DNA of 64,000 nucleotides from Okamejei kenojei (Eukaryota), in contig CM069165.1 in the NCBI GenBank assembly GCA_035221665.1, forward strand, positions 3,286,001 through 3,350,000. Reading direction: 5' to 3'. Shown in pieces: positions 7,661-24,297 of this stretch. Each line of letters opens with the position of its first letter. The first letter of the stretch is position 1. A program made the position numbers and the translations under genes. The notes below the pieces were generated by a model. That model ran no database searches. It saw nothing but the letters and a program-made list of their open reading frames with translations, and had not been told where the DNA came from.

Positions 7661-8287
7661 ATCGANNNNNNNNNNNNNNNNNNNNNNNNNNNNNNNNNNN
7701 NNNNNNNNNNNNNNNNNNNNNNNNNNNNNNNNNNNNNNNNNNNNNNNNNNNNNNNNNNNNNNNNNNNNNNNNNNNNNNNNNNNNNNNNNNNNNNNNNNAG
7801 ATAGGCATATAGACAGATAGATAGACAGATAGAGAGATAGACAGATGGACAACGTCGCCTATCTCCTTCGCTCCTTAGATGCTGCTGCACCCGCTGAGTT
7901 TCTCCAGCGTTTTGTGTACCCTAGACAGATAGACAGATAGACGGATAGAACGGATATGAACTTTATTCAGCTCAGGCACTTTGAATCCTGGCAATTTCTG
8001 CTTTACACATGTATGACCAAAGTAAACGAGAAACAAGCGATTTATTTGCAGTAACTCTCTCTTTATTGCTTAAGATATAACCATGTACAGAAACAAAGAG
8101 ACAGATTGGATGATCTCTGGTGAATTTCGAGCGCTGTGAATTGGATGTGGAAAATCCCCTGAATTTACACGCAAATTGATCCTCTCGTCAAAGATGGAAC
8201 GGAGTCATGAGCACTTAACTAACGCGGCAAAGCAAATTAATATTCCAAAACGATTGCAAATCCGAGAAAGGTAGGATCATAGTATCT

Positions 8288-8590
8288 TGAAATCATAAAA
8301 TCATGGAGATATGCAAGCCTGAAATAGAGATATCATGGAATCATAAAGTTATACAAAACTGAAATCAACGATATAATGGAAACACAACATTATACAATCT
8401 TGAAATCAGGGTTACAATGGAATCATGATATTATTCAATACTGAAATCACAGATATGATCATGAAATTCTGATATCAGGGATATCATGAAAGCATGGTTA
8501 AACAACCTTGAAATCTGAGAGATCATAATCACAATGTAATACATTCTCAAAATCATAGAAACAGCTATATAATGCGCAAATCATGAACAA
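8288..8590. repeat. degenerate ~40-bp minisatellite (TGAAATC...ATGGAATCA...TATACAA)
   Basis: About 7 imperfect units, each beginning TGAAATC. Confidence 0.7.
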
Positions 8591-8963
8591 TGAGAGAATT
8601 TTATAAAATCATTAGAGACATAGATAGGGTAGACAGTCACTTCTGCCCTCCCCAGTGGGTCAAAGACTAGAGGGCATAGCTTCAAGGTGAGATGGGCAAA
8701 GTTTAAAGGCCATGTGCGCGGCAATTAATTTTTACACAAATGGTGGTGGGCGCCTGGAATGCGCTGCCGGGGGTGGCGGTGGAGACAGATACAAAAGTTG
8801 CCTCAGAGGCTATCACCTTGGCACATATAAGTCAAGTGAATGGAGGGATATGGATCACATGCAGGCAGAGAGGAACTTGGTGTTGTGTTCGGCACGGACA
8901 TTGTGGGCAGAGGGACCTGTTCCCGTGCTGTACTGTTCATTGGTCTCTGTAATAACCCTGTAA

Positions 8964-8969
8964 TTTAAT
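8964..8969 (-). terminator. candidate TRBC polyadenylation signal (ATTAAA); alternative AATAAA at about 8062-8067 and 8041-8046
   Basis: ATTAAA on the minus strand about 57 nt after the TRBC stop. Two AATAAA motifs lie about 1 kb further downstream in unique sequence. Confidence 0.4.
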
Positions 8970-9025
8970 ACAGGGTGTAATACATGCCTACTTTTGTACC
9001 ATTGTTGTTGAATCTCGTTGGTCCC

Positions 9026-9052
9026 TCAATCAAACCTCGTGTTGTAAGATGT
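9026..9052 (-). CDS. TRBC: TCR beta constant exon 4 (cytoplasmic tail and stop)
   Basis: tctttcttatttcag|ACATCTTACAACACGAGGTTTGATTGA encodes TSYNTRFD*. Phase 0 fits exon 3, and it resembles elasmobranch TCRbeta tails as I recall them. Confidence 0.88.
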   Translation of the reverse strand, partial: TSYNTRFD

Positions 9053-9309
9053 CTGAAATAAGAAAGATGGGATATCAATATTAAATTATGCAGCAGTGTC
9101 CCGACTCGAAGACAACGGGAAGAAAGAAAGCAAGGGAGGTGGAGAAAATGAGGGAGAGAAATAAAGAGAAGCAGAGAGAAAGCAACATAGAAGGGCAGAG
9201 ACAATACAGTACGGAAACAGGCTATATGGCCCAACTTGCCCATGCCAACCAAGTTGCCCCAGGTACTGTAGTCCCAGCTTCCTGTGTTTTGCTCACAGGT
9301 TAGGTAAGC

Positions 9310-9912
9310 ACATCAACGCCTCAACTTCCTTAGAATATTTGGCATGTCCCCATCAACCCTCACCAACTTCTATGGATGTGCATTTTATCGGGATTCATTA
9401 GAACATGGTTTGGGCACAGCTCCATCTAATTCCACAAGACATTGCAGAGGTGTGGACACAGCCCACACCATCAGGCAAAACAATCTCTCTTCCATGGACA
9501 CCAACCACGTTTCACGCTGCCCCTGCAAGACCACCAGCATATCAAGGAACACTCACACCGGTGACTCCCTCTTCGACCCTCTCTCATCGCGCAGGACGTA
9601 CAGAAGTTTGAAAACTGATACCTCCAAATTCGGGGATAATTTATTCCCGGCAGTATTAGGCAACTAAACCATTTCTCACCAACTTGAGAGCGGTCCTGAG
9701 CTCCCATCTGTCTAATTGGAGATGTTTGAACTATCTTTAATCTGACTTTATTGGACATCAATGTGATATATTTGCACTAAACCTTATTCTATTTACACTG
9801 TGGTTGGCTGCATTGTAATCATGTATAGTCCTTGACTGTACAGCACGCAACAAAAAAAACATTTCAACATAACTCGGTGCACGTGACTATAATAAACTTA
9901 ATTACAACTAAA
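9310..9912 (+). mobile_element. L2-like LINE 3' fragment
   Basis: MSPSTLTNFY...LFDPLSSRRTYRSLKTDTSKFGDNLFPAV resembles an L2-type RT C-terminus, followed by a gcacgcaacaaaa...gtgac.aataaac tail. Related copies lie at about 30080-30750 and (minus) 54480-55000. Confidence 0.7.
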
Positions 9913-11187
9913 TATCCCTCAAAAACTTCACTGTCCACGTATCTGTTCCTCGAGATTATGGATACGTGACGTTTCTGGCCCAGACCCTTCTCATCTATCC
10001 ATGTAATCCATAGATGCTGACTAAGCTTCTGAGTTACTCAAGGAATTTGCGTCCCTTTGTTTAACATTGGATAGAGTGCAGAGAAGATTTACCACGATGT
10101 TCCCAAGACTCAAAAGCACAGAGAGAGGTTAGGCAGGCTAGGACTTTATTCCTTGGCCTGCAGGAGGATGAGGGTTGATCTTATAGAGGTGGATAAATGC
10201 ATGACGGGAATAGAGAGGGTGAACACACATTCCCCTAGGGTTGGGTAATAGAGAACCAAAGGACATAGCTTCAAGTTGAGGGGGGTTGGGGTGGGGGGTG
10301 GGGGGAGCTTTAATAAGAACACGAGGCACAACTTATTTCAAACATAGTGTGGTGCGTATATGCAATGCGCTGCCAGAGGAGATAGTTGAAGCAGGTACTT
10401 TCACAATGTAGTTGGACAGGTACATGGATATGTTTAGATGAATATTGGCAAAATACAGGGTGGTGAGAGTAGTGTAGATGTGGCATCTTGGGCAGCTTGG
10501 GTATGTTGAGTCGAAAGATCTGTTTCCGTGTTGTACGCCTCTACAACTCTATGATTCATGCCTCAATGAAAAATATACCCCATCCCTCTGTGACAGGCAG
10601 GTGGATATAGAGTCAGAGTCAAACAGCGTGGAAGCGGGCCCTTCCTTTGTCGGCGTTTGGCCCATATCCCCATAAACCTCAGAAATCCAGGTACCTGCCT
10701 ACATAATTCTTAAACATTGTGATAGTACCTGCCTCAACTCCCTCCTCAGGCAGCTAATTCCATGCACCCACCACCCTTTGTGACAAAATGTTACCCCTTA
10801 GGTTCCCATTAAATCATTTCCCTCCTAACCTATGTCCTCTGGCTCTTGATTTCCCTACTCTGGGCAAAAGTGTCTGTGCGTTTGCCTGGTCTATTCCGCT
10901 CAAGATTTTGTACCCATTTATTAGATCACCCCTCATCCTCCTGCGTTCCAAGGTATAAAGTCCTAGCCTGCTGAAGCTCTCCCTATAGCTCAGTCAATCG
11001 AGTCCTAGCAACATCCGACTAAATCTTCTCTTTGAAGCTTGACATCATCTTTCCTATAACATTGTGGCTAAAGCTGAACACAATACTCTAGCTATGGATT
11101 CCCCAACATATTTTAGAACTTTAACATGGGTTCCCAACATATTCTGAACAAAATATATCTGAATACATTTCTCCCAGAATGACCTAC

Positions 11188-11294
11188 CTTGCCTTTGCAA
11201 GCTAATACAGACGCAATTATTCCATAGAGAATGCTCTTGCAAATCAGGATCAGATAAGTTAGTTTCCCAGCTTCCATTGTCTGCGTTTTGGCTT
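11188..11294 (-). CDS. TRBC: TCR beta constant exon 3 (transmembrane)
   Basis: ccttaacag|AAGCC...AAG|gtaggt encodes (E)AKTQTMEAGKLTYLILICKSILYGIIASVLACKGK, with the TCRbeta TM pattern Y-x5-K-x2-LY (CD3-pairing Lys). Phase 1 in, phase 0 out. Confidence 0.94.
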
Positions 11295-12825
11295 CTGTTA
11301 AGGGAACATACCAATTTGCTATGAACATATTTAGTTAAGAATTAAGTTTAAACAATAAAATTCTTACTTGTTAAAGTAGGATATGCACTTTAGCACAACA
11401 GAAAATTATGAATTAGCAATGGCTGGAGTTGCGGAGTGTGAAGAAAGCTGTCAATGTATACAACGGAATATAGATCAGCTACAGAAACGGGCGGAGAAAA
11501 GGTAATGGAATTTATTCCGAGCAAGTCAACGGTGTTAAACTTTGGGAGGTTGAATGTAAGGGGAAATACTACATTGAATGTCAAGACACTTATCAGCATT
11601 GATGTATAGAGGGATCTTGGTGTCCAAGTCCTGACTTCCATGAAAGAAGCAAGACAAATATATACAGTTCCCCACCAAGTTTAGATTATTGTCACGTGTA
11701 CCGAGATGCAGTAAAACGCTTTTGTTACGTGCTAACCAGTTAGCTGAAAGACAATCCAATATAAACCAAGGCATCCACAGTGTGCATACACATGATAAAG
11801 GGAATAATGTGAATATCATTTAGTTCACGATGAAGTCCAGTAAATCGTCTCAAACGATAAATGAAATCAATGCAAGGGAAGTTGGTTCATGTAATTGTCT
11901 GTGTTGCATCCACAATTATCTGCAGTTGCCTGCGCTCTTGAACGGAGCAGTTCCTATTCCCAATTTTCCAGCAACTAGTTGTCCGACATATCTTTAAATC
12001 AAGAGGAGAGGAGTGAAATTGTAAAGAAGGAAGTGCAGATGCTGGAAAATCGTGCGTACACAAAATGCTGGAGCAACTCAGCGGGTGCAGCAGCATCTAT
12101 GGAGCGAAGGAGATAGGCAAAGTTTCGGGCAGAAACCCTGTACGAGAGGGCACTTGAAATCCATCCCCCGGAAGTCTCCATCGAAAATGTGGCATCTACG
12201 CCTGATGAGGTAGTTGATATCGATCTCAGTGGGACTTCCATGGCTGATAGGCCGGTCGAATTTGTCTCCTGCGGCCAGGGTTCTGGATCTTTCTGGAACC
12301 AGCAGGACCATTGCCATAGCCGAATTCTGAGCGCGACATTGCGGGATCCATATCCCTGCACCTGATCGGCCTATGCGGACTGTTCCAGTAACGTTGTCCT
12401 CCTCTCGGAGGCCGTGATCTCGGCTGGTCTTCCAAAACGGATCATGCAGAAAGGGTGCTGGAAAATTGTGGGTGGTCCGGTAAAGAAGCCACACCGGATG
12501 CTTGCCTTTTTCGGTCGGGCATTGAGTATAGGTTTTGAATGAAAGGTGAAGAGATACAGGTCCTTCATCAATGTCCAGAAACCTTGGTTCCATAGCCTTT
12601 CCATATTATCAGTTGTGCTGGTCCAGCATAGGCCACGGCCTCTGAGAGGAGTCCAACTACTGGAATGGTCCACCTTGGCCATTGAGGAGCCGAGATCGGC
12701 CTCGGAAGTTGGCTATGGGAACGGATCTCCTGTAGTTCCAGAGCACTGGCTGCTGGGTGCATATTCGAGCCAACAATCGGCCGCGGAAGTCAGGATGAGT
12801 TCCAGATCAGCCACCTCGCCGTAGG

Positions 12826-14712
12826 AACATAGAAAACAGTGCAGAAGGAGGCCATTCGGCCCTTCATTGTGATTATGACTGATCATCCACAACCAGTAAC
12901 CTGTGCCTGCTTTCTCCCCATACCACTTGATTCTGCTATTACCTAGAACTCTATCTAACTCTTTTAAATTAATCCAGAGAATTGGCCTCTACGTCATTCT
13001 GTGGCAGAGATTTCCACAAATTCACAACTTTCTGGGTGTGAAACGTTTTTTCTCACCTCAGTCTGAAATGACCTCCCCTTTCTTCTGAGACTGTTGCCCC
13101 TGGTTCTGTACCCAACGAATATTGGAACATTTTTTTCCTGCATCTAGCTTGTCCAGTCCGTTTATAATTGTTTGTGTTTCTATAAGATCCACACTGATCC
13201 TTCTAAACCCTAGTGACTACAATCGTAGTCTTACCAATCTTTCCTCATATGACAGTCCCGCCATCCCGGGATTAATCTCGTGAAGATATGCTGCATTTCC
13301 ACAATAGCAAGGATGTCCTTCCTCAAATTAGGAGACCAAAACTGCACACAATACTGCAGATGTGGTCTCACCAGGGCCCTGTACATCCCGGCCTATGTGC
13401 TACATTTCAGGGGGGGGGGATTCCTGGGGATGTTTCAAGGGTGTTCTTGTAATTTTGTCCGGATTAAAAGAGGTGCCGGTCAACCAGTTGTCGGAAAATC
13501 GGTGGTGGACCTGTACCATAACTAAAAGTCCATTCTACGAAACCTACTATTAAATCATTTTCCCAGCTTACATTGTCTGAATGTTAGCTCTGTTAGGAAA
13601 ACAGAGATATGCTCAATACCTTGACTGATGATGAAGACCAAATTAGAAATAAGAATATTAAATGGGAGATTATGTTACAGTTGTTCCAGCCATTATTGAG
13701 GACAGATTTGGAGGATCATGTTCAGTTTTGGTCATCCTGTTATGGGAAAAATGTTGTTCCTTGAAAGTAGCATCACAGGTAGATAGGGATGTCAAGAAAA
13801 CTTTTGGCACATTGGACCATCCGTCAGAGTATTGAATGTTGAAGTTGAGAAGGCATGTTACAGTTGTATAAGATGTTGGTGAGGCCGCATTTGGAGTATT
13901 GTATTTAGTTTTATAATAAACTATAAATGGTGCAGAGAAGTTTTACGAGGAGCGCAGGAGGACAATAGACAATTTACAATAGGAGCAGGGGTAGGCAATT
14001 TGGCCCTTCGAGCCAGCACCGCCAATCAATGCGATTATGGCCGATCATCCCCAATCAGTACCTCCTTCCTGCCTTCACCCCATATCCCCTGACTCCGCTA
14101 TGTTTAAGAGCGCTATCTAGGTCTCCCTTGAAATCATCCAGATAACCTGTCTCCACCAGTGGCTGAGAATTCCACAGACTCACCACTTTCTTTGAGAAAA
14201 AAGTGTTTCCTCGACTACGTTCTAAATGGCTTACTCCTTATTATTAAACGGTGGCCCCTGGTTCTGGACACCCACAACATCGGGAACATGTTTCTTCCTT
14301 CTAGCGTGTCCAAGCCCTTAAAAATCTTATATGTTTCAATGAGATCCCCTCTCATCCTTCTAAACTCCAGGGTGTACAGGCCCAGCTGCTCCATTCCCTC
14401 AGCATTTGGCAGCCCCACTAATCCGGGAATTAACCTTGTAAACCTACGCTGCACTCCATCAATAGCAAGAATACCCTTCCTCAAATTAGGGGACCAAAAC
14501 TGCAAGAATATCCTTCCTCAAATTAGGGGACCAAAACTGCACACAATGCTCAAGGTGTGGTTTCACTAGGGCTCTGTACAACTGTAGGTACAACTGTAGA
14601 AGGACCTCTTTGTTCCTGTATTCGATTCCTCTTGTTATAAAGGCCAACATGCCATTCGCTCTGATCACTGCCTGCTGTACCTGCATGCTTATACCTGCTG
14701 TACCTGCATGCA
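12826..14712 (-). mobile_element. CR1 3' fragments (12826-13385 and 13965-14712) flanking the psi-TM copy
   Basis: VQRRFTRLIPG...LGLYTLEFRRMRGDLIETYKI, and PHLEHCVQFWSP. Confidence 0.85.
13548..13589 (-). pseudogene. second, internally deleted and frameshifted copy of the TRBC TM exon in Cbeta intron 2
   Basis: cctaacag|AGCTAACATTCAGACAATGTAAGCTGGGAAAATG aligns to exon 3 cttaacag|AAGCCAAAACGCAGACAATGGAAGCTGGGAAACTA. It is followed by GTAGGT like the true donor. The upstream flank (13600-13900) matches the flank of the 23.4-kb copy. Confidence 0.75.
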
Positions 14713-15626
14713 GGAAGAGGATCATCTCCTAGAGGTAGATACATTCATCAGGGGTATGGAACATAGACACATAAAGCTGGAGTAACACAGCGGGGCAAGC
14801 TGCATCTCTGAATGGGTGATGTTTCGGGTTGAGAAACGTCACCTATTCCTTTTCTCCAGAGATGCTGCCTGACCCGCTGAGTAACTCCAGCTTTTTATGT
14901 ATATCTTTGGTTTAAAATAGCATCTGCAGTTCGAGGGGAATTCCACTTACACATTAGGGGAATAGATCGGGTGATCGAGAACCAAAGGACATAGGTTATA
15001 TAACAGCTGTGCAAGACATATATAGGTAAGGCCACATTTGGAGGTTTGCGTTCAGGTTTGGTCAGCCTATTTATGAGAAAAGTGTTATTAATCTGGAAAG
15101 GATGCAGCAAAGATCTACAAGGATGTTGCCAGGACTCGAAGCCTGATTTTATTCCTTGGAGCGCAGGAGGATGGTCTTATAGAGAGGTAGAAATATCGCT
15201 AGAGGAAGAGTTCTGGTAAAAGCAGAGTCTCTTGCCCAGACCAGGGGGATCGAGTACCAGAGGACATCGGTTTATGTTGAGGTGGGGGGACAGCTTTAAT
15301 AGGAACCTGAGGGGTAACATTCCACACGTGGGCTGGTGGGTACCTGGAACAATCGGCCAGGGGAGGTAGTTGAGGCAGGTACTATCACACATTTTAAGTA
15401 ACAGTTAGACAGGCACATGGATAGGAATGGTTTACAGGGATTAGGGTCAAGCGTGGGCAGGGGGGCGTGATATACATGGGGCATGTTGGTTGGTGTCGCA
15501 AGTTAGGCGGAAGTGCATTTTGCACTCTGCATGACTCTGCGATATTCACACGCTTTAACGCTGACACACAAAGTGTAAACAGTCTTGAAATAATAACCGA
15601 ATCCTTATTTAAGTAAAACCGCTCAC

Positions 15627-15647
15627 CTTTATTTAAGCCACAAGTCT
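15627..15647 (-). CDS. TRBC: TCR beta constant exon 2 (connecting peptide with interchain Cys)
   Basis: 21-nt exon tttcttctttcag|AGACTTGTGGCTTAAATAAAG|gtgagc encodes (E)TCGLNK, phase 1/1, matching the short CG-containing hinge exon of TCRbeta. Confidence 0.93.
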
Positions 15648-15774
15648 CTGAAAGAAGAAATATGAAAAATGTGGTCAGTAGTATATTATTTACATATTTA
15701 AGGCATAAAAAATGCAGAGAGTTGTGGATGTATCCCAATCCTCCACACAGATCAGACTCCCACCAGCCGGGAAA

Positions 15775-16232
15775 GGGTTGCACAGTGGTGCAGCGGTAGA
15801 GCTGCTGCCGTGCAGCGTCGATTTGCCTATGGGTGCTGTCTGCGCGTAGTTTGCAAGTTCTTCCAGTGACGCCGCTGGTCCAGTTTCCTCCCATATTCCA
15901 AAGATGTGCGGATGTATAGGTTAATTAGATCCTAAACAACTGTCCCTAGTGTAGGATAGAACTTACGATTGTTGTTTGTCGTGGACTCAGTGGACCGCAG
16001 GGGCTGTTTCCCCGCTGTATCATGAAACTAAACTAAACTAAACTAAACTAAAGTAAGCTAGTGTACAGATGATCGTTAGTCGGCATGGACTCGGTGGGCT
16101 GAATGAACTTGTTTCCATGCTGTATCACTAAATTAAACTAAACTAGCATATGGGTGAGGTGATTGTTGGTCACCGTGGAATCGATGTGCCAAAGGGCCTG
16201 TTTCGATGCTGTATCTCTAAACTATAACTAAG
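15775..16232 (+). mobile_element. tRNA-derived SINE with triplicated 3' end and (TAAAC)n tail
   Basis: Head cacagtggtgcagcggtagagctgctgcc, body gggtgctgtctg..gtagtttg, tail gggcctgtttc..gctgtatc.ctaaactaaac. Other copies at about 31195-31580 (minus) and 40225-40548 (plus). Confidence 0.8.
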
Positions 16233-16244
16233 TTTCAATAAGGT

Positions 16245-17967
16245 CCAAGATAAATGTAGAATTAGCGTTACCTAATTTGATATGTTATTTTTGGCCGGTT
16301 CTGATTAAAAATATGAATTTTTGGCTGGTAAAAATGGATCAGGAACCAGCTTGGCTGAAGATGGAAATGGAAGATTGTTTACCGTTTGATATAAGTTCGA
16401 TTCTTCCTGCGTCAAGTTAAGTACAAACACAACTTCAATATGTAATTACTTCTAATAAAAATGTTTTACAAAAAACATATATTTTACAAAAGGAAACCCT
16501 ATAATTTATAGCAATATAAGTATTTGGAAACAAATAGTTAAGACATTACATTTGGATAAAGTGTCACTCTGTTTACCTATTATGAATAATGCTTTATTTA
16601 AACCTTCTATATTGTATAAGGGGTTTAGACACTGAAAGCATTTAGGAATTATAAGGATAGAACACCATTACAGGAAAGGAACATTTCTATCATTTAAAGA
16701 ATTAAAAGATATCTTTCGAATACACCCAAATAACTTGTTTAGGTATTTACAAATTAGAGACTATATCAAGTCAAACATGCAAGATTATATGAATAGAGAA
16801 CCAGGATTACTGGAAGAGTGGCTTTTCACGCATCCGAATACAGAAACATTAATAGCGTGCATATATAATACTCTTTTGGGTAGGGAAGTCCCAACAACAG
16901 AATCATACCGTCAGATATGGGAAAATGAAATAGGTCTATCTATAATGAAAGACGCTTGGGAAGAAATATTACAACGTATACGCCGATGCTCATTAAATGC
17001 CAAACATACTTTGGTAGAATTTAAAGTATTACATAGATTACACTACTCAAAAACTAAATTAAATAGAATTGTTCCTAACATTTCTTCTATTTGCGATAAA
17101 TGTCAGCATTACGAAGCTAACTTAACGCATAGTTTTGTAACATGCATTAAACTTAATATTTTAATTTTTAAGTTTTAAGTTTTAATTTTTAAGCTGATAT
17201 TTTTTGGAATCAATTTTGAAGTTATTAAAACTATATCGGATCCTGATCTAAAGCTAATAATATTAGCAGTGAGTGACTAAAGCTTAATATTAACAGTAAG
17301 TCAAAGAACGTTTCTTGATTACTGTTTGATAATTGGAAAAAAAATAATATTAACATTCTGGAAGGGAACATTATCCACCACAATCAAAATGTGGACTGTG
17401 GAAACGTCGGAGACGTTGCAATTGGAGAGATTTAGGGTTGTCCTAATGGACAAATATGAACCTTTTGAACACATATGGTCTCCATTCATTGATTATTTAA
17501 AGGGGTAGCTGAGCTCAGCACCGTAACTCAATAATAACCCTGGTGTAGGATTAGATGAAAAGTTGTATTCTGGGATCTGTATACACGTCTCTATAGATAT
17601 TGTTATGTGAAACTGTTCCATTCATTGTTAAGATGTATTCCTTATTTTTTATTTATTTTTCTATAGATATATATATTTATTATATAATAATTGTTTTTAT
17701 TTTTTTATTTGCTTATCTTTATTCTTTTTTATTTTTTATTCTTTCTTATATAATCATTATTATTTAATCACCACTTCTTGATTATCGATTTATACTTTTA
17801 TTTGTATTCCACTCCCTTTCCTTCCCAAAAAAAAACAAAAAACAGTAGCGTATATAAATTATTCCGTAACATCTGTACAACTTTGGTGACAAGTCTAATT
17901 TATATTTGAAGTACTGTTGTTGCTTAGATAATATGCAATGATACTAATAAAAATATATTTTTTAAAA
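16245..17967 (+). mobile_element. L1/Tx1-clade LINE 3' fragment (ORF2 C-terminal CCHC finger, T-rich 3'UTR, polyA signal)
   Basis: FRYLQIRDY...FKVLHRLHYSKTKL...CDKCQHYEANLTHSFVTC...WSPFIDYL*, with AATAAA near 17946. Confidence 0.88.
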
Positions 17968-18022
17968 GGTTCGATGAGGTCTACCCTCATCCAGCGAGTA
18001 CAGGCCCAATGCTGTCAGACAC

Positions 18023-18520
18023 TCATAGAAACATAGAAACATAGAAAATAGGTGCAGGAATAGGCCATTCGGCCCTTCGAGCCTGCACCGCCATTCAATA
18101 TGATCATGGCTGATCATCCAACTCCGTATCCTGTACCTGCCTTCTCTACATACCCCCTGATCCGATTAGCCACAATGTCCACATCTAACTCCCTCTTAAA
18201 TATAGCCACTGAACTAGCCTTAACTACCTTCTGTGGCAGAGAATTCCACAGATTCACCTCTCTCTGTGTGAAAGACTTTCTTCTCATCTCGGTCCTACAA
18301 GATTTCCCTCTTATCCTTAAACTGTGACCGCTTGTTCTGAACTTCCCCAACATGGGGAACAATCTTCCTGTATCTAGCCTGTCCAACCCCTTAAGAATTT
18401 GGTAAGTTTATATAAGATCCCCGCTCAATCTTCTAAATTCTAGCGAGTACAAGCCGAGTCTATCCTGTCTTTCTTCATAGGAAATTCCTGCCATCCCACG
18501 AATCAGTCTGGTTAACAGTC
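18023..18520 (-). mobile_element. 5'-truncated CR1 3' end
   Basis: (CATAGAAA)n tail and GHSLRIRG...VNLWNSLP. Confidence 0.9.
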
Positions 18521-19934
18521 TGAATCATACGTTAACCGAAACATTCCCTGGATCATTCTCATAAAGCACTTTTGTTTTGTTCTGTATGTTAGCCATCGTC
18601 TGCAGTTATAGTGTCATAGAGTCACAATCGTGGAATCAGGCGCTTTGGAGCAACTTGACCATGCCGACCAACATGCCCCATCTATTCTAGTCCCACCAGC
18701 CTGCATTTGGCCCATATGCTTGTAAGGCTCTCCTATCCATGAACGTGTCTAATGTTTCTGAGATGTTATGATAATACTTGCCTCAACTACCTCCTCTGGC
18801 AGCTCGTTTCATATCCCCGGCACCCTCTGTGTAATAAACGTTACCTTTCAGGTTCATATTATATCTTTCCTTAATTTCACCTAAACCTACAGTATGTCCT
18901 ATGGTCCCCGATTCCCCTACTCTGGGTAAAAGACTCAGTGCACTCACACATCATTTTCCTCTAGTGGCATTATACACCTCTATACAATCACCATTCATCC
19001 TCAGGCACTCCAAAGAATAAAGTCCTAGCCTACGCAACCTCTCCCTACATCTCATGCCTTCGAGTCCTGGAACAATCGTCATAAGAATAGAACATCATGA
19101 GAGGCATAGATCGGATAGGTCTGTAGTCTTTTGCCCAGAATAGTGGAATCGAGAACCAGAGGACATAGGTTTAAGGTGAAGGAGAAAAGATGTAATAGGA
19201 AACCGAGGGGTATTTTTTTTTCATACAGGGGATGGTGGGTATATGGAACTAGCTGTCAGAAGAGGTAGTTGAGGTATATACTATTGCAAAGTTGAAGATA
19301 CATTTAGACAGGTACATGAATAGAGGAGGATTAGAGGGATATGGGCCGAATGCACGCAGGTGGGACTAGTGTCGTTTGGACATGTTGGCTGGTGTGTTAA
19401 AGTTGGGGTGAAGGTCCTATGTCCACTATGACTGTCTACTATTCAGTAATGTTCGATATTCCATACATTCATGTTCATACGTTTTAGGAGCACAATTAGG
19501 ACATTCGGCCCATCTAGTGTACTCTGCCATTCAATAATGGCTGATCTATTTTTCCCTCTTGACCCCATTCTATTGCCTTCTCCCCATAACCACTGACACC
19601 CTTACTCAGCAAGAATCCACCAATCTTTGCCCTTAAATATCTAATGATTTGCACATCACAGCCTTCTGTGCCAATTAATTGCACAGATTCACCACCCTTT
19701 GTCCACAGAAATTCCTCCTCATCTCGTTTCTAAAATTACGTCCTTTTATTATGAGGCCGTGGACTCTGGTCATCAACTCTCCCACTAATGGAACCAACCA
19801 CCCCACATCCACCAATCCAGGTAGCACCTCGTCCTTCTAAACTCCAGTGCGCACAGGCCCAGAAGCCGCAAATTCCCCTGTACGTCATCCCAATCATCCC
19901 CGGGGTCATTCTCATACACCACTTTTAGTTACAT

Positions 19935-22900
19935 AAATACATAGAAAGGAGGTGCATGTGTAGCCTATTCAGCCCTTCGAGGCAACAGCGTCATTCAATT
20001 TGGTATGGCTGATCATCCACAATCTGTACCCAGTTCCTGCCTTCTCTCCATAACCCTTGACTCCGCCAGTTGTAAGAGCTCTATCTATCTCGCTTTTGAC
20101 CAGCGAATCGGCCTCCACTGCGTTCTGAGTAGTGAATTCCACAAATTCACAACTCTGTGTGTGAAAAAGTTTGTCCTCATCTCAGTTCCAACTGGCCTAC
20201 CACTTATTTTTAAACTTTGGCCCCTGGTTCTGGACTCCCCCAGCAGCAGGAACATGTTTCCTACATCTAGTGCGTCCAATCCATTAATACATTTATATGT
20301 GTATATAAGATCTCGCCTCATCCTACTGAATCCACTGATTACAAGCCCAGTCGCTCCATTATTTCGTAAGTTGACAGTTCCACCATTCTTCTGAACCTAC
20401 ACTGCACCTCCTCAATAGTAAGAATGTGCTGATTCAAAATACTAGATCCAAACTGCACACAATATTCTAGCTGTGATCTCACCTGTGCCCTTTACCTCTG
20501 CAGAATCACCTCTTTGCTCCTATATTCAACTCCTCTCGTTAGGAAGGTAAACATGCCATTAACTTTCTTTAATGCCTGATGTATCTGCATGCTTACTTCA
20601 GTGACAGATGTACTAGGGCACACAGGCCTCGTTGTCCTTCCCCTTTTCCAAAACAGACACCATTTAGGTAATAATATGCCCACCCGTTCTTGCCACCAAA
20701 GTAGCTAACCTCACATTTACCCACATAATACTGCAACGACCACGCATCTGCCCACTCACCCACCCTGACCAAGTCACCCTGCATCCCCATAGCAGCCTCT
20801 TCACACTTCACACGGCCACCCAGCTTTATGTCATCTGCAAATTGGCTAATGTTACTTTTAAATTCCTCATCGAAAACGTGAATGTATATTGTGATTAGCT
20901 GCAGTCCCAGCACTGAGCTTTGCGGCAGTAGTCACTGCCTGCCATTCTGAAAGGGACCCGTTAATCCTTACACTGTGTTTCCTGTCTGCAAACTAATTTG
21001 TTATCCATGTCAACGCTCTATCCCCAATACCATGTGCTCTAAATTTGCCCACTTATCTCCTGTGTGGGACCTTCTCAAAGATGTTCTGAAAGTCCAGGTA
21101 CACTAAATCCAGCGGCTCTCCCGTGTTTATTTTTCTTGTTACATCTTCAAAAAATTCCAGAAGATTTGTGAAGCATGATTGCTCCTTCGTAAATCCATGG
21201 TGACTTGGAACGATCCTGGTACGGCTATCCAAATGTGCTGCTATTACATCTTTGTTAATTAACCAGCATCTGCTCCACCATTGATGTCAGGCTAACCGGT
21301 CTATCATTTGTGATCTTTCGTGTTTTTACCGGCTTTTTCAGTTCTTGTTAATATTATCTGACAATGGCCAATAGGTGCAGGAGTAGGCCATTTGGCCCTT
21401 CGAGCCAGCACCGCCATTCACTGTGATCATGGCCGATCATCCACATTCAGTGCCCCGTTCCTGCCTTCTCACCATATCCGCTGACCTTATTATATTTAAC
21501 AACTCTATCTAACACTATCTTGAAAGCATCCAGAGCCTTCCACTGATTTCTGAGGTAGAGAATCCCATAGATCCACAACTCTCTGGGTGAAAACGTTTTT
21601 CCTCATCTCTGTTATAAAAGGCCTACCCCTTATTCTTCAGCTGGTTCTGGACTCCCTCAACACCGGGAACATGTTTCCTGCCTCTAGCGTGTGCAATCCC
21701 TTACACATCGTATGTGTTCCAATAGGATATCCTCTCATCCTTATACATTCCGGAGTATACATGCTCAGCCGCTCCATTCTATCAACATATGATAGACCTG
21801 CCATCCCGGGAATTAACCTCGTGAACCTACAATAGCAAGAATGTCCTTCCTCAAATTTTGAGACCAAAACTGCACACAATACTCCAGGTGTGGTCTCACT
21901 GGGGTCCTGTGCAGCTGCAGAAGGACGTATTTGCTCCTATACTCAACTCCTCGTGTTATGAAGGCCAACATACCATTAGCTTTCTTCACTGCCATATATC
22001 CACATTAAGCTACATCTGCCATACATCCATACACACTGCCACCCAGCTTTGTGCCATCTGCAAATTTGCTAATGTTACTTTGAATCCCTTCATCAAAATT
22101 ATTGATGTATATCGTAAATAGCTACACTACCAGCACCGAACATGCAATACACAACTTGTCACCGCTGTGTCAATCTGAAAGGGGCCCGTTAATCCCTGCA
22201 CTTTGTCTCCTGTCTGCCAACCAATGTTCTATCCATGTCAGTACCCTACCCCCAATACCTTGTTCTCTATTTCTGCCCACAAATCTTCTATATGGGACCA
22301 TATCAAATGTTTTCTGAAAGTCCACCGACACGACATCCTCTGGCTCTCCCTTGTACATGTTCGTAGTTACATCCTCAAGAAATTGCACAAGAATAGTCAA
22401 GCATGATGTCCCCTTCATAAATCCATGCTGACTCGGACCGATCCTGCTACCGCTATCTAAACGTGCCGCTATTTCATCATTTTATGATTGACCCCAGTAT
22501 CTTTCCCACCACCGATGTCAGGCTAACTGTTCTATAATTCATTGTTTTCTCTCTCTCGCCTTTCTTACATTAGCTACCCCCTAATCAACAGGAACTGATT
22601 CTGAATCTATAGAACATTGAAAAATGATCACCGATGTGTCCAGGATTTCTAGAGCCACTTCATTATTACCCTGGGATGCAGACCATCAGGCCCTGGGGGT
22701 TTAACAGCCTTCAGTCCCTTCAGTCTACCCAACGCCATGTTCTGCCTAATGTGATTTTCCTTCAGTTCTTCCATTACCCTAGATCCCCTGGCCACAAGAA
22801 CATCAGGAACATTGTTTGTATCTTCCTTCGTGAAGACCGATCCAAAGTACCTGTTCAATTCATGTGCCATTTCCTTGTTCCCTAAAATAAATTCACATGC

Positions 22901-22950: not shown

Positions 22951-23305
22951 TTACCTGCCTGCATGCGATCCATATCCCTGCATGTCTGCGCTTCCCTGTG
23001 CCTGTCTAACAGCCACTTAAACGTCACTGTCGCAGCTGCCTCCGTCATCTGCCCCGGCAATGTGCTACAGGCCCTCAAGGATAGGCTTATACACTCTATG
23101 ACCCGATGATTCCTGGATCTTTGAGTTTAATTATGTAGCTCCCTGAAAGCGGCAATACTAGTAGATATAGTGACAACGAAGACGAACAGTGTGCTTGCCT
23201 GCATCGGTCAAGAAATTGAGCAAATGTTTCGAATGTAAGGGGAAGATGTACCAGGTCCAAATCACCTTCCTAGCAAACTTTTCTACCTTATTTCAGACTA
23301 TAAAA

Positions 23306-23445
23306 TCATGGCCTTAATTCCACTAGACAAGGAGGGTTTGTTGTAGTTGTTTTACAAGCTAATACTGAAACAATTATTCCACAGAGGATAGTTTTGCAAA
23401 TGAGGTAAGTCAGCTTCGCAGCTTGCGTTGTTTGAAATTCAGCCT
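23306..23445 (-). other. duplicated TRBC transmembrane exon (open frame, own tail and stop) in Cbeta intron 1; alternative exon or pseudo-exon
   Basis: ctcataacag|AGGCTG... encodes (E)AEFQTTQAAKLTYLICKTILCGIIVSVLACKTTTTNPPCLVELRP*. It is clearly paralogous to exon 3, has the same acceptor phase, and lies 501 nt after the exon 1 donor. Confidence 0.8.
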
Positions 23446-23946
23446 CTGTTATGAGGACAGAATTATACTCAATACACTGACTGATGAAGATCAAGAAAAA
23501 AATAGAAATAGGAATAGAATTTGGGAGGACATGCTACAGATGTGCAGACATTGGTGAGGCCACATATGGAGTATTGTGTTCAGTTTTAGTCATCCTGTTT
23601 TGCGAAGTTCTTCAAGAGTGGCATCGAAGGAAGATGGGGGGGGGGGTGAAGAAAGCTTTTCGCACAATGTCCTTCATCAGCCAGAATATTGCGAATCAAC
23701 GTTGCGTGGTCATGCTACAGTTTCATAAGATATTGGTGAGGCCACATTTGTAGTATTGTGTTCAGTTTGGTCACCATGTTATCGGAAAGATTATGTTCCT
23801 TGAATGTGGGTTTGCAGGTAGATAGGGTGGTCAAGAAAGCTTTTGGTACATCGACCTACATTGTTACATCACCTGTCAGAGAACTGGGAACAGAAATTGG
23901 GAGGTCATGTTACAGTTGTACAAGATATTGGGGTTAGATACCTCAC

Positions 23947-24297
23947 CGTGTTTGATGTTGTGGGTGCCATGTTTTGTTTGTGGTGTAGATCCATTCTTGT
24001 AGTGGTCTACTTCACACATGACTTGTTTGGCCTTTGCGTAATCTCGGGCGTCCAATCTAATGCGACTACTGATACTGAAGGTTTTCCCTCCGTCATCGCT
24101 CTGGGAGCTAGGATCCATCTGGATGTTAGGACTATCTTTGGATTGTTGAAAGCCATCAATAAACCAACGTATCTTGATGCTGTCCGGGTAGAAATCAGTG
24201 ATTAGACAAACCACCGTGGCTTTGCCCTTGCTATTAATTTCTTGGTCAGACGGCTGGAGAATTGTAACTTCGGGAGATCGCAGCTCCAATTTTGGAT
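23947..24297 (-). CDS. TRBC: T-cell receptor beta constant region exon 1 (Ig C1 domain)
   Basis: Encodes (D)PKLELRSPEVTILQPSDQEINSKGKATVVCLITDFYPDSIKIRWFIDG...FSISSRIRL...MCEVDHYKNG...NIKH. It has the TCRbeta C hallmarks PS..EI..K.KATxVCL..FYPD.....W and SSR, plus both Ig cysteines. Acceptor ctctctttcag|AT at 24298 and donor G|GTGAGG at 23946; phase 1 at both ends. Confidence 0.97.

Follow-up and report, generated by a model that had tools for sequence, protein, structure and literature searches.

A transmembrane-exon remnant, probably decaying and skipped, in the second intron of a TCR-beta constant gene of Okamejei kenojei

Intron 2 of a TCR-beta constant (TRBC) gene of Okamejei kenojei contains a 42-nt piece, here called remnant B, which resembles the beginning of the gene's transmembrane (TM) exon. 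Our analysis indicates, with a probability of about 0.84, that B is a decaying pseudo-exon derived from a TM-exon copy in intron 1, that it is likely skipped and likely free of selection, and that its inherited acceptor may permit some leaky inclusion in RNAs bound for NMD. All coordinates below are positions in the window, the whole 64,000-nt stretch of DNA that was analyzed (C35:3286001-3350000), and the gene of interest lies on its minus strand (-).

The minus strand of the window carries four J segments, located by motif search at 44680, 42977, 41260 and 31055 (-), and one TRBC gene of four exons. Exon 1 (23947..24297, -) encodes the C1-set domain, exon 2 (15627..15647, -) contains the hinge Cys, exon 3 (11188..11294, -) is the true TM exon and the coding part of exon 4 (9026..9052, -) specifies the cytoplasmic tail. 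A protein from Leucoraja erinacea (P0001) has 85% identity with exon 1, and its C-terminal end matches exons 2, 3 and 4; when near-length homologues of exon 1 were searched for, none turned up. The hinge, TM segment and tail are the same as in the four-exon TRBC of other cartilaginous fish (P0001, and P0003 and P0004 from Ginglymostoma cirratum). Unlike these, the locus described here has extra TM-exon copies in introns 1 and 2 as well as a partial downstream duplicate. We found no description of extra TM exons or of secreted TCR-beta in cartilaginous fish in the literature searched, which lay mostly outside subscription journals. Two other features of the locus were observed. At 37503 (-), between the J segments at 41260 and 31055, an RSS-like heptamer, a 23-nt spacer and a nonamer stand beside a short G-rich stretch, and this element is probably a D segment. 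Also, 3' of exon 4 there are direct duplications of ~0.8 kb with 81–83% identity and an offset of ~2.3 kb (3060-3843/5400-6190 and 1-771/2205-3057).

A second TRBC gene (gene 2) lies ~300 kb from the first (gene 1) in the opposite orientation (C35:3608257-3618500, +). Its exon 1 is 77% identical to that of gene 1, and four J segments were found upstream of it in the stretch examined. From C576:69652 onwards there is a close copy of this second gene, with a longer intron 1 and 97–98% similarity over the aligned cores, which would be either an allele or a third gene. Additionally, a partial tandem duplicate of gene 1 (C35:3266749-3279573), corresponding to window positions 7970-21993 (~14 kb), is located ~26–29 kb downstream and contains exons 2–4 and no exon 1. 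Motif search revealed no J segments upstream of this duplicate, and we therefore read it as partial. Compared with gene 1, its exon 2 is identical at 21/21 positions with intact splice sites, its exon 3 at 96/105 and its exon 4 at 27/29. The TM exon of the duplicate has a 2-nt deletion that would stop the chain before the membrane if it were reached by read-through, and its pN/pS against the functional exon is 0.25.

Remnant B (13548..13589, -) represents the 5' part of a copied TM exon, from which 1 nt has been deleted after the acceptor. The first-pass annotation had placed a remnant here that lacked one base and the hydrophobic segment, and both the placement and the losses were borne out by alignment: positions 13603-13551 match the TM exon (11308-11255) at 77.8% over 54 columns with a one-base gap, a similarity beyond chance (E 5e-6 within the window). 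The acceptor hexamer TAACAG (13590-13595, -) belongs to an acceptor region with a pyrimidine tract (13590..13654, -) that B has in common with the intron-1 copy, referred to below as copy A. When exon 2 is spliced to 13589, the translation is the peptide reported earlier (...ETCGLNK-ELTFRQCKLGK*), with the shifted frame ending at a TGA (13555..13557, -). The ancestral TM frame of B is disabled by the deletion, by the loss of the hydrophobic part and by a TAA at 13570-13568. A single T at 13570 (13568..13572, -), private to B among nine aligned copies, creates this TAA and at the same time the Cys codon of the shifted frame and a second cryptic GT donor. A high-copy short repeat (13410..13516, -; 1365 first-look candidates in the genome, 40 of them scored) starts ~30 nt 3' of B; the labels that we use for such elements, LINE-like or short mobile repeat, were read from the sequence without a repeat library.

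The sequence upstream of B connects it to copy A (23302..23445, -), a near-complete TM-exon copy with a 6-nt deletion and no donor. In a comparison of the window with itself, the block 13551..13911 (-) matched 23406-23768 at 72.5% over 371 columns. This block consists of a repeat-derived flank, the acceptor and the start of the exon, and B and A have ~360 bp of upstream intron in common. A tree was constructed from a 95-nt core of nine copies (three A, two B and four TM exons). The three A and two B copies fell into one group against the four TM exons with a bootstrap of 100, the inner order of the group being weak (68–84), and B is 79–80% identical to the A copies versus 59–62% to the TM exons. 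Judged by these comparisons, B is a sister of copy A and was not copied directly from exon 3. Between the two TRBC genes, the A copies are 81–82% alike, about equal to the distance between B and A, and it follows that B either arose near the split of the genes or predates it, with a later loss in gene 2.

A genome search with B returned four matches, namely B itself, a second remnant (B') in the downstream duplicate, and two A copies. This search detected no B-type remnant in gene 2 or its C576 copy, where the flanking intron-2 blocks are collinear without it. Collinearity of genes 1 and 2 extends to either side of the B block, and similar repeat fragments occur there in both introns. A search for a decayed exon 1 upstream of B found nothing.

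The first-pass annotation had pictured B as an independent copy of exon 3 that suffered an internal deletion and kept both of its original splice sites. The claim holds for the acceptor, TAACAG being inherited; the donor may or may not descend from that of the TM exon. The proposed donor, GTAGGT (13542..13547, -), is preceded by ATA and has no G at −1. Because the homology of B to the TM exon stops at ~13551, GTAGGT falls outside the demonstrably homologous part. The hexamer is identical to the exon-3 donor of gene 1, which would fit an exon-3 copy, but the other three TM donors read GTAAG, and in the three A copies the TM codons are followed by no donor. The 42-nt tail of B is also loosely similar to the start of intron 3. 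Of random intron windows, 14/415 are as similar to the tail as the exon-3 donor region is, and on this slight likeness the donor of B may be inherited. We compared the tail with four TM donor regions and with the downstream regions of three A copies under four scoring schemes (28 tests). Its fit to the four TM donor regions was within the range of shuffled sequences (at best, 331/2000 were as good), and the resemblance to intron 3 is not significant in any of the four schemes. The best match overall was downstream of gene-1 A, with 21 to 237 of 2000 shuffles as good, and was discounted after 28 tests. Since the upstream flank and the tree both link B with copy A, it is scarcely credible that B was copied from exon 3 independently.

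The history of the locus can be reconstructed from these alignments as follows. A duplicate of the TM exon, with ~60 nt of the acceptor region attached, was placed in intron 1, giving copy A, which is found in both TRBC genes. A block in which the beginning of intron 1 is joined to an exon of the copy A type is also present in intron 2 of gene 1, where it constitutes B. Later than B, a 14-kb stretch from the 3' part of the gene was duplicated, which made B', and B and B' have since been damaged differently by stops and by repeat insertion. The block would have reached intron 2 by recombination or conversion between the similar repeat fragments, at about the time when the TRBC genes split.

The one-base deletion of B is common to B'. 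The homology of B' ends at the equivalent of 13564, where a repeat begins, and B' is therefore without the TGA and without GTAGGT. At the position of the "second Cys" of B, the codon in B' is a TAG stop. Conservation was assessed by one comparison, that of B with its paralog B', which on so short a sequence has low power: 22/26 positions of the exon part and 27/30 of the acceptor are identical, while the non-exonic background is 8367/10017 (83.5%). Windows as conserved as B make up 34% of 9411 at a length of 56 nt and 10% of 9026 at 91 nt, and 463/663 intronic AG dinucleotides survive in the duplicate. The 65-nt tract upstream of B is above background (60/65 identical in B'), and the repeat-derived flank beside it is also high (274/308). 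In the shifted frame, five of the first eight residues before the Cys position are common to B and B' (L, F, R and Q are kept; T differs). By this comparison B is diverging at the neutral background rate, with no excess conservation. Since B' sits in a presumed dead duplicate, its decay limits a function of B without disproving one.

Scoring of the splice sites had been proposed in the first-pass annotation, and it separated the two ends of B, the acceptor topping intron 2 and the donor proving weak. We used an approximate frequency matrix based on vertebrate consensus tables and not trained on this genome. On this matrix the acceptor of B scores 6.9 and ranks first of the 256 AG sites in intron 2. 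Among the real acceptors, that of exon 3 (3.3) is below B, and those of exon 2 (10.0) and exon 4 (8.7) are above it. As the inherited acceptor is the best-scoring AG of the intron, leaky inclusion is plausible. GTAGGT scores only 1.1, and 17/220 GT sites in intron 2 (itself included) are as good. The G at −1 that B lacks is present in 14/14 real donors of the locus (8 J, 6 C), and 13/14 of these outscore the donor of B. Better competing donors are located at 13572 (3.6) and 13372 (4.4). Use of the alternative AG two bases on (13587) would lead to a stop after six residues. The competing donor at 13572 (AAT/GTAAGC, 13571-13566, -) would define an 18-nt micro-exon whose junction with exon 3 makes a stop codon.

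These signals raise the question of a young poison cassette, in which the strong acceptor, joined to a donor at 13572, 13548 or 13372, would divert an appreciable fraction of TCR-beta RNA into NMD and thereby tune the level of beta chain. The lead of the B acceptor within intron 2, together with the weak acceptor of exon 3 on the same approximate matrix, is in its favor. So is the position of the stop, which with the donors at 13572, 13548 and 13372 lies 105, 114 and 290 nt before the last junction (105–290 nt). The relevant section of PMC7072976 gives the NMD rule as a stop >50 nt before the last junction and states that in mammals PTC-bearing TCR-beta RNA is degraded very efficiently. The first-pass suggestion of a poison cassette thus survives in its conditional form, for the 42-nt cassette, if used, would have its stop 114 nt before the last junction. 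A regulated role is not supported, given background conservation, a weak donor and a gene 2 without B.

Known cases of unproductive splicing help to place B. The section of PMC11387194 that deals with them describes unproductive splicing as mostly noise at unconserved cryptic sites, the exceptions being regulated, highly conserved single events such as SR-gene poison exons (citing Lareau 2007). B resembles SR-protein poison exons in having an in-frame stop >50 nt before the last junction. However, they are highly conserved single events, whereas B has background conservation, is missing from the paralogous gene, lost its donor in B' and offers several weak competing donors rather than a single one. 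We therefore regard a tuning cassette as unlikely. B is closer to the pseudo- and cryptic exons treated in that section of PMC11387194, which likewise are unconserved, have splice-like signals and lead to a premature stop and NMD if included; it differs from them in that its acceptor is inherited from a real duplicated exon and is not of chance origin. For the decaying pseudo-exon that we favor, the inherited acceptor would probably catch a small share of exon-2 donors. RNAs including B would carry a premature stop with any of the tested donors, and NMD would clear them as splicing noise. Three sequencing runs examined over this region behave like DNA; their joints are repeat artefacts (15 inspected, with 1070 further ones in the data), they give no coverage at 13526-13700, and they carry no information on expression.

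The first-pass annotation had also suggested a TM-less chain with two Cys residues, and we considered B as an alternative terminal exon for a secreted beta chain bearing the hinge Cys plus a second Cys, in the manner of the Ig heavy-chain switch. If the acceptor is used, the stop does precede the membrane. The path from exon 1 through exon 2 into B is open and terminates 11 residues past the end of exon 2 without a hydrophobic stretch, the tail being hydrophilic (mean hydropathy −0.4 over 10 residues), and an AATAAA (11511..11516, -) lies upstream of exon 3. A functional secreted form does not follow from this. The AATAAA, the first after the B stop, is ~2 kb downstream across repeats, and one of its bases differs in the duplicate; between the B stop (13555) and 11516 there is no AATAAA or ATTAAA, and four weak variant hexamers are all that was found. 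Moreover, the second Cys rests on one private base, at a codon that is a stop in B'.

We also compared C-terminal ends among related proteins, 6 named and 12 unnamed (of 150 listed), mostly gene models and cluster representatives. Three of the 12 unnamed proteins are mammal-like or bony-fish-like and were left out of the count of 15. Of the 15 cartilaginous-fish-type TCR-beta proteins, 13 end in the normal hinge, TM and tail and 2 read the TM exon out of frame. A B-type end was present in 0/15, a weak argument against a secreted chain, since proteins that are mostly models or cluster representatives say little about rare isoforms. The two out-of-frame proteins, P0002 and P0047, look TM-less and could pass for secreted forms; they are probably gene-model or annotation errors.

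A beta chain without its partner is normally retained in the ER, which also speaks against secretion. The Ig tailpiece is conserved and has its own polyA site close behind it, whereas B has no canonical signal for 2 kb and a Cys private to one copy. B is similar to the secreted and membrane arrangement of Ig heavy chains, for which two forms are described in a review (PMC6795676), in that a short hydrophilic tail with a Cys precedes the TM exon; the same review describes the TCR as always membrane bound. A secreted beta chain from B is thus unlikely in general, and an alternative terminal exon working like the Ig switch is highly improbable. We also think it very doubtful that the locus has an Ig-like 3'-end switch in which acceptor 13589 would give a hinge-bearing, membrane-free chain and copy A a hinge-less membrane form, with a soluble cartilaginous-fish TCR chain as the outcome.

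Copy A had been counted in the first-pass annotation, as the 23.4-kb copy, among three candidate C-terminal exons. This needs correction in one respect: it sits in intron 1, upstream of the hinge exon, and is therefore no alternative to exon 3 after the hinge. Copy A is a better lead than B. It begins ~500 nt 3' of exon 1 and continues the exon 1 frame without a stop for 46 codons. A chain ending there would skip the hinge Cys and keep the hydrophobic stretch (2.14 vs 2.28) and the TM lysine, minus two residues. A polyA candidate, ATTAAA, is found at 23131, ~170 nt after the copy A stop. When copy A is compared with the TM exons and with the other A copy, its pN/pS is 0.24–0.35 (26–31 codons, small counts), i.e. 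fewer amino-acid than silent changes. In gene 2 and in C576, copy A is in the same place and is frameshifted by an 8-nt deletion. Copy A may be a present or past hinge-less alternative terminal exon.

As a decayed fragment, B matters little in itself; it records three rounds of local duplication in the TRBC locus, and gene models can be misled by it. If B were truly used, it would be a duplicated exon recycled as an NMD switch on an antigen receptor or, alternatively, would provide a fish with a natural soluble TCR chain, the first of its kind, with implications for the time at which the split between secreted and membrane forms of antigen receptors arose.
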